DNA from: a bacterium
Lineage (GTDB): Bacteria; Verrucomicrobiota; Kiritimatiellia; CAIKKV01; CAITUY01
Reading direction: 5' to 3'
DNA: 64,000 bases
NCBI GenBank assembly: GCA_037128595.1
Contig: JBAXWB010000016.1
Coordinates: 19,819 to 83,818, forward strand
This document shows, in pieces, positions 21,645 to 53,005 of this stretch (positions are counted from its first letter, which is position 1; every line of letters starts with the position of its first letter). Under the pieces are notes generated by a model that was not told where the DNA came from, made no database searches, and worked only from the letters and a program-made list of their open reading frames with translations. A program made the position numbers and the translations under genes.

Positions 21645-21666
21645 GCCGTCCCGGAATTGATTTCAC

Positions 21667-21733
21667 TGGAGGGCGCCGCTCTGTCGGCGCCGGTATAAAA
21701 AAAATAGTGGTTTTGACAGAGCAAAACCCTCCA
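21667..21733. repeat. REP-like doublet (type B forward, type A reverse)
   Basis: TGGAGGGCGCCGCTCTGTCGGCGCC at 21667-21691; GGTTTTGACAGAGCAAAACCCTCCA at 21709-21733. Confidence 0.85.
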
Positions 21734-21747
21734 AAGGGAGAATCAGT

Positions 21748-23682: not shown

Positions 23683-23689
23683 ACGCAGA

Positions 23690-23747
23690 GGTTTTGACAG
23701 AGCAAAACCCTCCATTATTAAATGGAGGCCGCCGCTCTGTCGGCGCC
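23690..23747. repeat. REP-like doublet (type A reverse, type B forward), tags facing inward
   Basis: GGTTTTGACAGAGCAAAACCCTCCA 23690-23714; TGGAGGCCGCCGCTCTGTCGGCGCC 23723-23747. Confidence 0.85.
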
Positions 23748-23766
23748 GGTGCATATGGAGCCTGAC

Positions 23767-31410: not shown

Positions 31411-32619
31411 ATGAAGCGTATTTTCTCTATCGTGGTATCCATGTGGCTGGTTATGGTGCTCCCAGGGCTGGCCGGAAGTTCCATGGGGTGGCGGGGAGAT
31501 GCCACCGGTCGTTATCCTACGGCCACACCTCCACTAGCCTGGTCGAGCACCAGCAATGTGGTGTGGAATACGCGGCTTCCCCGTTTCTCCAATGCGACGC
31601 CCTTGCTCATCAAGGACCGTTTAGTAGTCTGTGCGGATCCCGCCACGTTGATCTGTCTGGAGGCCGCCAGCGGCCGGATTCTCTGGCAAAAGACGAATGG
31701 ATATGAGGACGTGCTTTCTCCGGTTCAACTTGAGCAGGCCCGCCAAGTCTACACCAATTTAAATACCTCGCCCAAGACCCATAACGTCGCAGGATTCACG
31801 TCTCCTACGCCGGTCACCGATGGACGTCGGGTGTATGTGGTGTTCGGGAATGGGGTGGCGGCCTGCTACGAATTAGATGGCACCCGGGTGTGGGCCCGGC
31901 TGGTGGAGCGGCCGACCCATCAATGGGGGCATAGTGCCTCCCCGCTGCTGATTGGCGGAACGCTCCTCGTGCATGTGCTTAAAATGACTGCGCTGGATGC
32001 CTCGACTGGGAACACGCTGTGGGCCACCGAATCACCGCCTGGATGGGGCACCGCTGTGGCCGCCCGGATTGGAGCCGGCGATGTGGTGATCACCCCCAAG
32101 GGCGATATCCTGAACCTCGCTGATGGCAAGAAACTGGCCCGCTCGGTCTCCAAGCTGGACTACTGTGCGCCGGTGGTGGAGGGGGACAAAGTCTATTTCG
32201 TGGAGAATGGCGGGAAAGCCATCCGCCTTCCCAGCACGATATCTGTGCCACTTACAGTTGAAACCCTCTGGCAGACCAGCCCGGCGGCGGATCGCTATTA
32301 CGCGTCACCGGTGTTTTATAAGGACCGCCTCTATGCGGTTAACCAGAAAGGGGTGTTCAGCACGATCGATGCCTTGACCGGTGTGGTGTTGAACGAAACT
32401 AAACTGGAACTGGGCGGCACCTGTTATCCGAGCGTGACCTTGGCCGGACACTGTCTTTTTGTGAGCAGCGATAAAGGCGTGACGGTGGTGTTTGATCTGG
32501 ATGAGGGCGGGAAGGAAGTGGCCCGCAACGTATTGGAACCCTTCCGGAGTTCCCCGGTATTTGACGGCACCTGTCTCTACATCCGGACCTTGGCCGGCAT
32601 TTATTGTATCGGCCGGTGA
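31411..32619 (+). CDS. PQQ-like beta-propeller repeat protein
   Basis: Signal peptide, GWRG, STPVTDG-like TSPTPVTDGRRVY, GHSASPLL, YASPV, FRSSPVF repeats. Confidence 0.85.
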   Translation: MKRIFSIVVSMWLVMVLPGLAGSSMGWRGDATGRYPTATPPLAWSSTSNVVWNTRLPRFSNATPLLIKDRLVVCADPATLICLEAASGRILWQKTNGYEDVLSPVQLEQARQVYTNLNTSPKTHNVAGFTSPTPVTDGRRVYVVFGNGVAACYELDGTRVWARLVERPTHQWGHSASPLLIGGTLLVHVLKMTALDASTGNTLWATESPPGWGTAVAARIGAGDVVITPKGDILNLADGKKLARSVSKLDYCAPVVEGDKVYFVENGGKAIRLPSTISVPLTVETLWQTSPAADRYYASPVFYKDRLYAVNQKGVFSTIDALTGVVLNETKLELGGTCYPSVTLAGHCLFVSSDKGVTVVFDLDEGGKEVARNVLEPFRSSPVFDGTCLYIRTLAGIYCIGR

Positions 32620-32707
32620 TCCATCCCTAAACTTCCTCTTATCACTCCGGGCGTAACTAGGTGGCGTTCGCCGTCCCCGGCGAACGTGTCCATAGTGTTG
32701 CGCTTAA

Positions 32708-32866
32708 ACGGCCGCCGTTGACGTCAGCCACCGGTTGCACATGGCGTTTCTGGGTGGATCGATCACTTGGGGGGCGACGGCGACTCCACCTATTGGCCCA
32801 AGATGTCGAGAAAACCAAAATTCTGGATTTCCGGCGAGCTGGCAAAGTGACGTTATTCATAGGTGA
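32708..32866 (+). pseudogene. Possible SGNH/GDSL hydrolase remnant
   Basis: Frame reads RLHMAFLGGSITWGATATP, resembling SGNH block I, but it is bounded by stops and similarity fades afterwards. Confidence 0.35.
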
Positions 32867-32939
32867 CGAGTAGTTAGTAAAATACTATATATAAATCTAT
32901 GTCAGTGGATTTATATGGTTCGCAAAATCATCTTCCCTT

Positions 32940-33033
32940 CCAGCGGGACAAGCCCGCTGGAGAGGGTAACGCTCCCGATGGCGGCAAGCCTGCTAGGGTG
33001 GATCTTGCTCCCGATGGGCTTGTCCCATCGGGG
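32940..33033. repeat. Left hairpin cluster of the Y1 element
   Basis: CCAGCGGG-ACAAG-CCCGCTGG (32940-32960), degenerate CAAG unit (32971-33002), inverted unit CCCGATGGG-CTTGT-CCCATCGGG (33010-33032). Confidence 0.85.
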
Positions 33034-33039
33034 CTGAAA

Positions 33040-33855
33040 ATGGGCTTGGCTACACGACCGCCCCGCTATACCGCCCATAACCTCTCCAGCGCCTTCTCGC
33101 TGCGCTACGACTGGACGGGTTGGCCAAAGGAGGGAACCTCCCTGCCGCCTTCCGCAATTGATATCGCCCGCTCCCTAGCATCCCTGTGGGAGCAGGACGG
33201 ACTCCGGCTCATGGAACCACACGCCACCGCCGAAAAAATCCAACTTCTCTTCAGTGTCACCCCTGCGATCAGCCCAACCTTTTTCACGATGCGGGTGAAG
33301 GGTCGGCTCCAGCATGCCCTGCGAAAAGCGGGAACACCGGTGCAATTTAGCCGCAAGGTGTCCTTGCGTAGCCTCGGCGAGAATATCACCGCGCAGGTGG
33401 CGGGGTATCTCCATAGACAGGTCGGCAAGGAAGGTTTCGTTGACCCGCGGTTTGAGAGGATTATGAGCGAATTCACCGTAGCGTGTCCGGAGGTTGTCCT
33501 GGCGGAGCCAGCCGCCTCGAGCAGCGGGCGATATTGGTATAACCTGCATGTCGTGCTGGTCGTGGCTGATCGGTTGAGAATCACGAATCCGGTGAAGTTG
33601 GGGCTACTGCGTGATGCCGTTTTTGTCGTGGCAGAACGGACGGGTTGCCAGATTGCGGCGCTGGCGGTGATGCCAGATCATGTGCATGCGGCTGTGCGGG
33701 GGAATTACGAGATGACACCGGAGGAGATTGCGCTTGCCTTGCAGAATGGTCTGGCGCAGGCGCTTGGGTGCCGGGTGTGGCAGGACGGGTTTTATGTGGG
33801 CACGTTTAGCGAGTATGACCTGGACGTTATCCGCCGTATCGTTGGGAAATCATAA
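33040..33855 (+). CDS. Tandem double-domain Y1 (IS200-like HUH) transposase/nuclease
   Basis: 271 aa. Domain 1: SLRYDWTGWPK...EKIQLL...VKGRLQHALR...GYLHRQ; domain 2: RYWYNLHVVLV...MPDHVH...WQDGFYVGT. Codons 32899-33039 of the track ORF are hairpin-repeat DNA, so ATG 33040 is preferred. Confidence 0.82.
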   Translation: MGLATRPPRYTAHNLSSAFSLRYDWTGWPKEGTSLPPSAIDIARSLASLWEQDGLRLMEPHATAEKIQLLFSVTPAISPTFFTMRVKGRLQHALRKAGTPVQFSRKVSLRSLGENITAQVAGYLHRQVGKEGFVDPRFERIMSEFTVACPEVVLAEPAASSSGRYWYNLHVVLVVADRLRITNPVKLGLLRDAVFVVAERTGCQIAALAVMPDHVHAAVRGNYEMTPEEIALALQNGLAQALGCRVWQDGFYVGTFSEYDLDVIRRIVGKS

Positions 33856-34048
33856 TCTCCTGTCGGGCAAGCCGACAGGGGGATAATCATAATCTCCTGT
33901 CAGGTAAGCCGACAGGGGGATATGCTCCCGGGCGGGCAAGCCGAGAGGGGGATATGCTCCCGGCGGGCAAGCCGACAGGGGGATATGTTCCCGGCGGGCA
34001 AGCCGGCAACAGTGGATGTGCGCTCCCGACGGGCTTGTCCCGTCGGGG
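33849..34048. repeat. Right tandem hairpin array of the Y1 element (5 direct units plus 1 inverted unit)
   Basis: Units of 31-37 bp with core CTCC(T/C)G(T/G)CGG-GCAAG-CCGACAGGGGGA starting near 33857, 33894, 33925, 33957, 33988, then inverted CCCGACGGG-CTTGT-CCCGTCGGG (34025-34047). Confidence 0.92.
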
Positions 34049-34159
34049 CGGGAAAGTTTGTTTGCTTGCACTTGTCATGTAGCCCGCACTGTGCTGCATT
34101 ATGGGCATAAACCTCGGCATATAGGGGCGGCGTCACTTATGCATGAAAACCAACGTGTG

Positions 34160-35554
34160 CTAGTTCCTGGTCGGAAGTGAGGAAATTTCGACAACGTGAT
34201 AGGGGCCCTGATTGAATACCGGTTTAGCCGAGGCCGGCGGCTTCCACGGGAAGGGATCGGAATAGATCACCAGACTGCCGGGCTTGAGTGGTTTCGGGGC
34301 AAGCGGCAGCGGGGTAGGCCAATAGCCGGCTTTTAAAAACACCGTGCTTTCGTCAATGGCGGTCATGGCGGCAGATACCACACACGTTCGATCCTGCAAC
34401 CGGGCCCACTCCACTAAGGCGGTCAGATCTTTTTCCGGAGGCTTCTGGAATTGGATGGGCAGGAGGTGGATGGCCAGACTCAGGGCCACGACCAGCAGGG
34501 CGGTGAGGGGGAGGCCGCACCGGTACCAGTGACGCAGGGGGCGCCAGCCCCAGGTGGCGATCCCATAAGCCGAGATCATGGCCAGCATGGGGTAAAGCGG
34601 GAGTTCATAGCGGGGCCGCTTGTCCGGGAACAGGGTCAGGCTAACTGCCCAGAGGCCTGCCCATACCGACGCCATCCAAAGCATCTGGCGGTGATGCCGG
34701 GAGACGGGTCCCTGCCACCAGCGGAACAGGCCTGCGAACAGGGCAATCATCCAGGGCCAATAGGACCGCCCGATTTCAATGGCGTAATACCAGACGGGCT
34801 CGCGGTTGCGATATCCCTGCAGCCGGGCCACCACTTCATGGCCGAAGTATTGCTGGACGAAACGGTCGCCGTAGAGGTGAATCATGGAGGCGTGCCACGG
34901 CAGGGCCACGAGCAGGGCGGTAAACATGACGGTCAGCACCGGAATGAGGGAGGGCCGCTCTCGGTGTTGTCTGCCGATCAATAGCCAGCCGAGAAGAATG
35001 GGGAGCAGCATGAGCGCCATCAGCGGTTTGCACATGAGGGCCAGACCTAGCGGGAGGCCTGCGAGCCAGAACAGGTGCCGGTGTGGGCTTTTCGCGGCCG
35101 CTATCCAGATCCAGGCGGCGGCCAGCATGAACAGGAGTTGCCACATATCGAGACAGATTTCCCGTGAGCGGCGGAAAAATTCATAGCTCAAGGCCATGAT
35201 GCACCCGGTGAGCAGGGCGACGGCTCTTCCTGACAGGCGGCGGGTAATGCCAATGGTGAGGATCACGCATCCTGCGGCGGCGAATATGCCAGGGAGGCGT
35301 ACGGCGGCCAGGGTGATGCCAAACAGATGCAGGAAGAGACCGTGAATCCAGAATACCAGAGGCGGCTTGTTGAAATAGGGGACGGCGGGATGTTCGTGCG
35401 GTGTCCAGAACAGGGCCGGGTTCTGCCAGGCTTGCAGCCCCACGGCGGCATAATGCGCCGTTTCAATCCGGAAATCGCCCTGTTCAAGATGAGGCAGGGT
35501 GACCGCCAGCAGGAGCAGGACCGGCAACGCATAGATCCAAAATCGTCGTTTCAT
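34160..35554 (-). CDS. ArnT/PMT (GT39-like) membrane glycosyltransferase
   Basis: ETAHYA, YFNKPPLVFW, AVRLPGI, GLALMCK, REPVWYY, KRPRYELPLYP. Confidence 0.85.
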   Translation of the reverse strand: MKRRFWIYALPVLLLLAVTLPHLEQGDFRIETAHYAAVGLQAWQNPALFWTPHEHPAVPYFNKPPLVFWIHGLFLHLFGITLAAVRLPGIFAAAGCVILTIGITRRLSGRAVALLTGCIMALSYEFFRRSREICLDMWQLLFMLAAAWIWIAAAKSPHRHLFWLAGLPLGLALMCKPLMALMLLPILLGWLLIGRQHRERPSLIPVLTVMFTALLVALPWHASMIHLYGDRFVQQYFGHEVVARLQGYRNREPVWYYAIEIGRSYWPWMIALFAGLFRWWQGPVSRHHRQMLWMASVWAGLWAVSLTLFPDKRPRYELPLYPMLAMISAYGIATWGWRPLRHWYRCGLPLTALLVVALSLAIHLLPIQFQKPPEKDLTALVEWARLQDRTCVVSAAMTAIDESTVFLKAGYWPTPLPLAPKPLKPGSLVIYSDPFPWKPPASAKPVFNQGPYHVVEISSLPTRN

Positions 35555-39221: not shown

Positions 39222-39234
39222 GTCTGATAAAACA

Positions 39235-39308
39235 GGTTTTGACAGAGCAAAACCCTCCATTCAGGAACGTGAAATTCTTTTAATGGAGGGCGCCGCTCTG
39301 TCGGCGCC
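39235..39308. repeat. REP-like doublet (type A reverse, type B forward)
   Basis: GGTTTTGACAGAGCAAAACCCTCCA 39235-39259; TGGAGGGCGCCGCTCTGTCGGCGCC 39284-39308. Confidence 0.85.
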
Positions 39309-39314
39309 GGGGGC

Positions 39315-52952: not shown

Positions 52953-52957
52953 ATCAC

Positions 52958-52980
52958 AAGGGTTTTGCTCTGTCAAAACC
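52958..52980 (+). repeat. REP-like palindrome, type A with degenerate tag
   Basis: AAGGGTTTTGCTCTGTCAAAACC. Confidence 0.75.
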
Positions 52981-53005
52981 TCTTTCTCCCTCCTATACTC
53001 ATCCC

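Follow-up and report, generated by a model that had tools for sequence, protein, structure and literature searches.

What kind of genetic unit is formed by a Y1-type HUH (histidine-hydrophobic-histidine) nuclease gene with CAAG-loop hairpins on both sides is the question raised by positions 32,867 to 34,048 of a 64,000-nucleotide stretch of Kiritimatiellia DNA (assembly GCA_037128595.1, contig JBAXWB010000016.1), the whole of which is called the window here. The first-pass annotation of the locus had linked the hairpins to the gene and likened them to the REP (repetitive extragenic palindromic) sequences around RAYT (REP-associated tyrosine transposase) genes and to the subterminal hairpins of IS200/IS605 insertion sequences (IS). 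Our analysis suggests, at a probability of roughly 70%, that the locus is a REPtron-like unit, in which the nuclease gene lies at the head-to-head junction of two inverted, cognate REP-like hairpins. The best reading is that it is not an IS200/IS605 element.

In the following, an F unit has a loop that reads RCAAG on the + strand, and an R unit has a loop that reads CTTGY on the + strand. Loci are numbered with the prefix L, and scores in bits are those of the covariance model. The gene and its flanks contain these features:

32856 to 32883, + strand: weak sigma-70-like promoter match, TTCATA-16-TAAAAT, in the A+T-rich stretch upstream of the left hairpins
32930 to 32970, + strand: F REP-like unit with leader ATCTTCCCTTCC and the perfect hairpin CCAGCGGG-ACAAG-CCCGCTGG at 32940-32961; 44.4 bits
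32971 to 33006, + strand: chimeric half-unit (the 'degenerate' CAAG unit, 32971-32997), GCTCCCGATGG-CGGCAAG-CCTGCTAGG, then the spacer GTGGATCTT; repeat D4
33001 to 33041, - strand: R REP-like unit, the left closing hairpin, GCTCCCGATGGG-CTTGT-CCCATCGGGGC at 33007-33034; 43.5 bits
33040 to 33855, + strand: tandem-Y1 HUH nuclease gene of 271 amino acids (aa), from homologue alignment, profile and fold prediction
33849 to 33893, + strand: F REP-like unit 1 with leader AATCATAATCTCC and the hairpin CCTGTCGG-GCAAG-CCGACAGG at 33859-33879; 37.3 bits
33894 to 33924, + strand: F REP-like unit 2 with a GTAAG loop and one A.C stem mismatch; repeat D1; 11.9 bits
33925 to 34022, + strand: three chimeric units (3-5) with the R-type 5' arm CTCCCGGCGGG, GCAAG and the F-type 3' arm CCGACAGG; 9-13 bits
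34016 to 34056, - strand: R REP-like unit, the right closing hairpin, GCTCCCGACGGG-CTTGT-CCCGTCGGGGC at 34022-34049, with the tail GGGAAAG; 42.6 bits

The ACAAG hairpin, the CAAG units, the GTGGAT motifs (32998-33003 on the left and 34012-34017 on the right) and the closing CTTGT hairpins all lie where the first-pass annotation had placed them, and the two closing hairpins do differ by the single compensated pair change, T-A to C-G, that it had noticed. Its five right-hand units are likewise in place as CAAG- or TAAG-loop units, but only units 1 and 2 are true hairpins, units 3-5 being chimeras. The leader of the left F unit agrees with the family consensus described below. The leader of the left R unit points to the gene and overlaps the ATG at 33040, the R hairpin itself ending 5 nucleotides (nt) before that codon. 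On the right side, the leader of F unit 1 includes the stop codon TAA (33853-33855), and its hairpin begins 3 nt past the stop.

To see the locus in its family, we scanned one genome per species and found 115 relatives of the gene, of which 80 loci with 32-75% protein identity were kept and studied; 76 of the 80 have enough flank on each side. The homologues come nearly all from Planctomycetota, Verrucomicrobiota, Lentisphaerota and Kiritimatiellia. They do carry flanking hairpins, as expected from the proposed link between hairpins and gene and the likeness to REP/RAYT. Within 60 nt of the gene we counted 37 R and 4 F hairpins on the upstream side, versus 36 F and 2 R on the downstream side. 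The upstream R hairpin is found at -3 to -50 and the downstream F hairpin at +13 to +30. Hairpin density is about 8 per kb near the gene and about 0.1 per kb beyond 400 nt, an approximately 80-fold difference. When hairpins within 100 nt of the gene were scanned blind to the loop, CTTG loops made up 51% upstream and CAAG loops 57% downstream, versus 1-3% far from the gene; RCGAG occurs beside the gene as a loop variant. Leaders point towards the gene, and L070 again has its stop codon within the leader. The family-wide conserved feature is an inverted head-to-head R/F pair with the gene in its junction.

The hairpins themselves form a family with a common grammar. The consensus of 54 proximal units, written in F orientation, consists of a pyrimidine-rich 5' leader, A[A/T]YTT..YCC, six freely varying base pairs, the loop and the complement. 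Double changes were found in 9 of the 11 stem pairs, and the stem covariation score was 0.645, compared with 0.187 for shuffled partners and at most 0.226 for slid partners. A REP unit of this family is the leader A[A/T]YTT...YCC, a G+C-rich variable stem of 8-11 bp and the conserved 5-nt loop RC[A/G]AG. GTGGAT, which had been taken for a REP tag, has no such part: it aligns with the spacer (GGGGAT/GAGGAT) and sits on the tail side, opposite the leader. The window has the spacer GGGGGAT(A/T) and L441 has GAGGAT, and GGTGGAT and GGGGGAT alternate inside the L002 array.

The arrays of the window are a more local matter. The closest relative, L319, has 93% DNA identity to the window locus and the same downstream neighbours (a PMT-family gene and Wzy_C), and it has the gene at the same site. 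Its left flank has three units and an R unit, and its right flank a single F unit, with no closing hairpin and no chimeric units, F unit 1 being the sole unit of the window's right flank that L319 keeps. The claim that both flanks are closed by an inverted hairpin therefore fails in this relative, although the right closing R unit was also found in L002, L003, L005 and L006. The gene is stable while the arrays change. In the window's clade (L002, L003, L005, L006, L012, L319, L320 and L441), F units are added upstream and often an R unit downstream, which gives a tail-to-tail F...R doublet on each side, a minority arrangement in the family. It is to these composite flanks that the earlier description of the flanks as direct and not inverted applies; for the family at large, with its inverted pair, it does not hold.

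The right array comprises five units (33857-34022), begins 2 nt past the stop codon and has periods of 37, 31, 32, 31 and 35 nt. Tandem Repeats Finder reported periods of 37 and 31 nt, the latter with 3.2 copies and 94% matches. The last of the three chimeric units terminates in ...CAGTGGATGTGCG. Since units 3-5 combine an R-type 5' arm with an F-type 3' arm, they are tandem copies of the segment from an F loop to the next R loop; that is, the chimeric units are a tandem amplification, with a 31-nt period, of the inter-loop segment of a tail-to-tail F/R doublet. The left chimeric half-unit is built in the same way, and L319 carries two such units and L441 four. Its 5' arm is identical to that of the closing hairpin, with which it can pair as one long hairpin (-33.2 kcal/mol, z -4.95 in the fold). 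We also rejected the idea that the right array is CRISPR-like, as it is one segment repeated at 31 nt without unique spacers.

These arrays could also be nothing but tandem repeats left by replication slippage at palindromes, their likeness to the homologues being inherited and without present function. The chimeric units are what duplicating a 31-36 nt segment in tandem is expected to produce, and copy number differs among close relatives. Such an account, however, leaves unexplained a conserved loop with freely covarying stems across phyla, the strict orientation rule and the dispersal of gene-less clusters reported below, and we consider it very unlikely. Slippage may still be how the arrays grow.

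The start of the gene bears on where the left hairpins lie. Because conservation in the homologue alignment begins only near residue 8, the start is, from the sequence, most likely the ATG at 33040 (271 aa) and not position 32899, which puts the left hairpins upstream of the gene and not within it. Automatic gene calls run the N terminus through the upstream hairpin array in P0002 (370 aa), in P0001 (285 aa) and in the 318-aa open reading frame 32899-33855. The N-terminal extensions, such as the PDGPKPAGED repeats in P0002, are translated REPs and an annotation artefact.

We then analyzed the protein. Pfam reports one Y1_Tnp domain, in the C-terminal half only, leaving the N domain undetected. 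With a profile of 71 homologues, the C half matched Sulfolobus IS200 and ISDra2 TnpA with E values of about 1e-10, and the N half matched IS608 TnpA with an E value of 0.003. The AlphaFold2 model (predicted local distance difference test score 88, predicted template modelling score 0.86) has the topology beta-beta-alpha-beta-beta-alpha-beta-alpha twice, and the best Foldseek matches were IS200, ISDra2 and IS608 TnpA, with TnpA-REP (4er8) lower. The N domain has Q68-L-L where the HUH motif is expected and carries Y123-x-x-x-Q127, whereas the C domain has H214-V-H216 and Ile (I267) at the canonical tyrosine position; the profile alignment places Y123 on the catalytic Y132 of ISDra2 and the isoleucine at the catalytic-tyrosine position. 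Among 47 genome-encoded homologues (down to 32% identity), no variation occurs at Q68, Y123, Q127, H214 or H216, and none has Tyr at position 267. From sequence and model, the protein looks like two IS200-type domains joined in one chain as a pseudo-dimer, with a single predicted composite, trans-type active site, to which the N domain would contribute the Tyr-Q helix and the C domain the HUH motif. Another tyrosine, Y259, stands just before the last helix of the C domain, off the canonical catalytic position (Y252/Y259 at 33805-33816), in 46 of the 47 homologues; its role could be structural, DNA-stacking or that of a second nucleophile. In a literature search, which was not exhaustive, we found no published tandem or pseudo-dimeric Y1 transposase and no REPs of this type from the PVC (Planctomycetes-Verrucomicrobia-Chlamydiae) superphylum.

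With a protein nearer to IS200/ISDra2 TnpA than to TnpA-REP and a class 1 Y-x-x-x-Q motif (PMC6006769), the locus might be taken for an autonomous IS200/IS605-type element. Its ends would then be the same-strand F pair (32940 and 33859) or the two R hairpins, and the gene would be excised as a single-stranded circle. In the window's clade each strand does have same-orientation hairpins on both sides of the gene, and no homologous locus apart from L319 shares the window's neighbouring genes. The pair conserved in the family is inverted, however, and does not have the same-strand layout of left and right ends, so the likeness to IS200/IS605 subterminal hairpins is not borne out; moreover, the 93%-identical relative has the gene at the same site but not the right closing hairpin. 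Near-identical copies of the gene were not found in any genome of the scan. Most genomes have one match to the gene; in the few with two, these are distinct, divergent paralogues, a truncated duplicate or a strain-variant contig. When the contigs (not reads) of four metagenome runs were aligned to 32500-34500, no excision joints, variants or loose ends appeared in the flanks, although rare forms could escape contig data; in run X1 the locus region is one contig of even depth. The single predicted composite active site also stands against the two of IS608 TnpA. We regard an autonomous element of this kind as quite unlikely.

Two partial or disrupted genes were seen in the scan. CAWDQE010000014.1 carries, 36 kb from the gene, a truncated copy covering the gene's 3' third plus the accompanying F array at 94% identity (L026 3471-4211, L077 3018-3606), which suggests duplication or recombination via the arrays. 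In L142 (4034-4830, JAZDIV010000062.1), the homologue was recovered as two overlapping tblastn segments, residues 3-139 and 124-266, and is probably frameshifted; that genome holds several dispersed hairpins.

A REPtron-like unit is expected to have relatives of its hairpins elsewhere in the genome. Exact-match scans with three hairpin types gave at least 120 stretches each, and among the matches listed a homologue of the gene was found in 13 of 358 stretches. The 345 gene-less loci among these matches have 165 head-to-head versus 21 tail-to-tail junctions, and their commonest clusters are RF, RFF and RRFF. From this head-to-head excess and these clusters, the dispersed element is the gene bracket minus the gene, as proposed for REPINs (REP doublets forming hairpins). 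In the complete chromosome OY970367.1, the flank hairpin of L070, CCACCCCG-RCAAG-CGGGGTGG, recurs in at least 14 other stretches, and the dispersed copies form R..R F..F clusters with a 66-nt period identical to that of the gene locus. Gene and dispersed copies occur together in PWXJ, JAZDIV, JANPHB, JAHBXV and DAOLDD; the flanking REP is likely the dispersed REP in PWXJ, JAZDIV and JBGQLF.

Exact CAAG-loop hairpins were also seen outside PVC, in Pyrinomonadaceae JAWKHN (L086, L089, L091, L101, L111, L117, L126 and L135), in Frondihabitans sucicola (L352) and in a Chitinophaga metagenome-assembled genome (L210, L216 and L230). An Acidobacteria metagenome-assembled genome has many direct CAAG-loop doublets with 71-nt spacing. 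Single non-PVC hairpin matches may be due to chance or binning errors.

In the window's own lineage, by contrast with the family, the hairpins were seen only at the gene. Chance can be excluded as their source: the 28-nt closing hairpin has two sites only in the 64-kb window at up to 3 mismatches (0 expected), and the F-array unit sequence matches inside the array alone. Run over the whole window with filters off, the covariance model scored the four true hairpins at 37-44 bits and everything elsewhere at 13 bits or less, a gap that mainly shows that there are no further copies, since those four hairpins are in its training set. In 20 kb of L319, which is outside the training set, three matches scored 37-46 bits and the next best 10 bits, with none away from the gene. 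A metagenome scan for the exact closing hairpin returned one matching stretch, itself another gene locus, and the source metagenomes yielded no additional k-mer contigs for the hairpin family. The earlier impression that the hairpins are specific to this element thus fits the window's lineage as sampled, but not the family, whose hairpin types are dispersed in many PVC genomes and mostly unlinked to the gene.

It may be proposed that the hairpins act at the RNA level only, the upstream one as a translational operator in the 5' untranslated region that masks the ribosome-binding site and the downstream ones as 3' stabilisers or terminators, all unrelated to the enzyme activity. The left hairpins lie between the promoter-like A+T-rich stretch, which is kept in L319, L005 and L441, and the start codon. 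The promoter scan was weak (2 sites in the region versus 0.8 expected), and the promoter at 32856..32883, if used, would place the left hairpins in the 5' untranslated region. The only purine-rich stretch before the ATG sits in the 3' arm of the R hairpin, where GGGG at 33030-33033, 6 nt 5' of the start codon, is the probable ribosome-binding site. Downstream, the F hairpin begins 2-4 nt past the stop codon, and REPs are known to influence mRNA stability and translation (PMC3733652). As RNA, however, the hairpins would have unlike loops, CUUGY upstream and RCAAG downstream, so the symmetry of the bracket makes sense only for recognition of DNA strands. The units are also dispersed in both orientations and form head-to-head clusters at places other than the gene. 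Neither Rfam, at gathering thresholds, nor a transfer RNA scan gave a match in the 64-kb window, and terminator-like sites were without significant excess. An intrinsic terminator at the right closing hairpin was rejected, there being no excess over shuffles and the scan having used another stem. A purely RNA-level role is unlikely, while a regulatory side effect is compatible with the REPtron-like unit as well.

Several results weigh against the REPtron-like unit. Dispersed copies were found neither in the 64 kb of the window nor in the 20 kb of L319 nor in the metagenome scan, so that any spreading of REPs is invisible in the window's organism. Under strict criteria, the proximal hairpin was undetected in about half of the homologous loci. 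The hairpins were chosen by their loop and inner seven pairs, and the conservation of both is partly by construction. The protein falls below the cut-offs of the two relevant NCBIfam models, transpos_IS200 (47.8 bits versus a cut-off of 55, C domain only) and REP_Tyr_transpos (23.2 bits versus a cut-off of 80). Finally, profile-profile comparison of the N and C domains by hhalign was not significant (E value 0.17), although the aligned stretch does set Q-L-L upon H-V-H.

If the locus is a REPtron-like unit, its working can be sketched by analogy with IS608 and ISDra2 TnpA and with E. coli TnpA-REP. The hairpin would fold on single-stranded DNA, and the enzyme would recognise the loop and leader on the RCAAG strand. 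Cleavage nearby through Y123, with the metal held by H214/H216, would be followed by rejoining. The outcome would be REP units copied or reshuffled into arrays, doublets and dispersed clusters, the gene itself not being moved. Since the proximal units offer the recognisable strand on opposite strands, the gene should not be excisable from the proximal pair in the manner of IS608. The upstream hairpin probably also damps translation of the gene, because it abuts both the presumed ribosome-binding site and the start codon.

A broader proposal is made only tentatively, as something possible but somewhat doubtful. The family may represent an undescribed class of HUH enzyme, a single-chain pseudo-dimer with one trans-type site (Tyr in domain 1, HUH in domain 2), that ranges over the PVC superphylum and into a few further phyla. 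Its partner would be a REP family without a tag that is defined by the loop RC[A/G]AG and not by a GTAG foot, with the gene at the head-to-head junction of a dispersing doublet. More speculatively, cleavage could take place in the conserved loop rather than at the foot, in the manner of the origin hairpins on which Rep proteins act; the chimeric half-units, being joined at their loops, might then be traces of cutting and rejoining.

Other features of the surroundings were noted in passing. Synteny between the window and L319 begins at 32821, within the last 30 nt of the alpha-L-fucosidase gene of L319, where the window has a PQQ-repeat gene upstream; a rearrangement hence stops some 110 nt short of the first REP unit (32930), on its upstream side, and not at a REP unit. 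A 66-nt piece at 32719-32784 matches another intergenic region of L319 at 82% (L319 7511-7576 and 9788-9817 were compared with 32719-32850). A palindrome, GGCGTTCGCCG-TCCC-CGGCGAACG, lies at 32659-32686, 45 nt past the stop of the PQQ-repeat gene. Its 31-mers appear in X1 as separate contigs at 46-75x versus 16x for the surrounding contig, with the same pattern in X2, so the palindrome is repeated elsewhere in the community or genome. The window also holds a second REP-like family ('A/B') at 21654-21735, 23689-23749 and 39234-39310, with a single copy at 52956-52985. All of its hairpins share the 6-nt loop ACAGAG/CTCTGT, the stem is either GGTTTTG or GGCGCCG, and every hairpin adjoins CCTCCA; they form three inverted doublets in both orders, a grammar like that of the CAAG family in that the loop is conserved and the stem free. 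No second Y1 gene is present within the 64-kb window.

Among domesticated transposases that keep up a population of short repeats, those of REP/RAYT systems are the best known. To our knowledge, studies of these systems have been confined almost entirely to Proteobacteria and deal with a single enzyme type and a single tag (GTAG). The present family follows the same genomic logic with another enzyme architecture and another recognition grammar, in which the loop is conserved and the stem free, and it occurs in phyla whose genomic repeats have received little attention. With its fused domains and split site, the enzyme offers a natural experiment on the trans active site that IS200/IS605 transposases use, and its one predicted site per chain is relevant to the number of active sites required for cutting and rejoining REP DNA. 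In practice, hairpin arrays of this kind yield false N-terminal extensions in gene calls and break metagenome assemblies.

How does the locus compare with known systems? For the REP/RAYT comparison we used PMC2817692 (Nunvar 2010), PMC3116915 (Bertels and Rainey 2011) and PMC3333891 (Ton-Hoang 2012). RAYT genes are immediately flanked by two inverted REP copies (PMC2817692, Nunvar 2010). As in REPtrons, with E. coli TnpA-REP and the Pseudomonas REPIN-RAYT system, a Y1 HUH gene lies here between two inverted G+C-rich palindromes. In other genomes of the family the palindrome also occurs scattered, as singles, inverted doublets and clusters; the stems evolve by compensation, and alternating REP arrays beside the gene resemble BIMEs (bacterial interspersed mosaic elements). 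The automatic annotation of the JGI even names homologues 'RayT'. On the other hand, the 54-unit consensus has no GTAG (GTRG) or CGTC head, the conserved parts being the loop and the pyrimidine-rich leader. RAYTs have a single Y1 domain with HUH and YIxxNP motifs, whereas the protein here is a 271-aa two-domain tandem with a split site and Y-x-x-x-Q in a separate domain. The absence of dispersed copies from the window's lineage is a further difference. The arrays recall enterobacterial BIMEs, in which REPs of either orientation follow one another at regular spacing and of which one kind, BIME-2, stands on both sides of the rayt gene of E. coli; unlike BIMEs, they are mostly direct repeats with one orientation switch and, in the window's clade, include many chimeric half-units.

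None of the subclasses of Quentin et al. 2018 (PMC6006769), including the Planctomycete-rich class 3, fits the protein. Class 3 TnpA-Y1 proteins are single-domain and about 178 aa long, with NHVH, W[TA] and YV..EQ motifs and hairpins with a CnGA foot (Quentin et al. 2018, PMC6006769). Their genes are flanked by 'atypical secondary structures', which can be highly repeated, and were described as 'resembling both IS and REPtrons' (PMC6006769). The family shares with class 3 its occurrence in Planctomycetes and Acidobacteria and a class 1-related Y-motif, but differs in its 271 aa, in the motifs PDHVH, WQ and Y[IL]xxQ, the last in the other domain, and in having no CnGA foot. The locus is of a kind outside the published REP (GTAG/CGTC) and TnpA-Y1 classifications that were compared.

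Among the TnpA proteins of IS200/IS605 elements, those of IS608, ISDra2 and Sulfolobus IS200 are closest in fold and sequence and share the DHVH (HUH) and Y-x-x-x-Q motifs; as in those elements, hairpin DNA adjoins the gene. IS200/IS605 elements have same-strand subterminal hairpins, whereas the proximal pair here is inverted, and the same-strand pairs are clade-specific and vary among close relatives. Multi-copy identical elements were not seen in the family, nor is a tnpB present. Unlike IS200/IS605 TnpA, the protein consists of two fused domains, each lacking half of the site. Subunits of the TnpA dimer work in trans, the Tyr helix of one acting with the HUH motif of the other, and the tandem protein appears to hard-wire one such pair.

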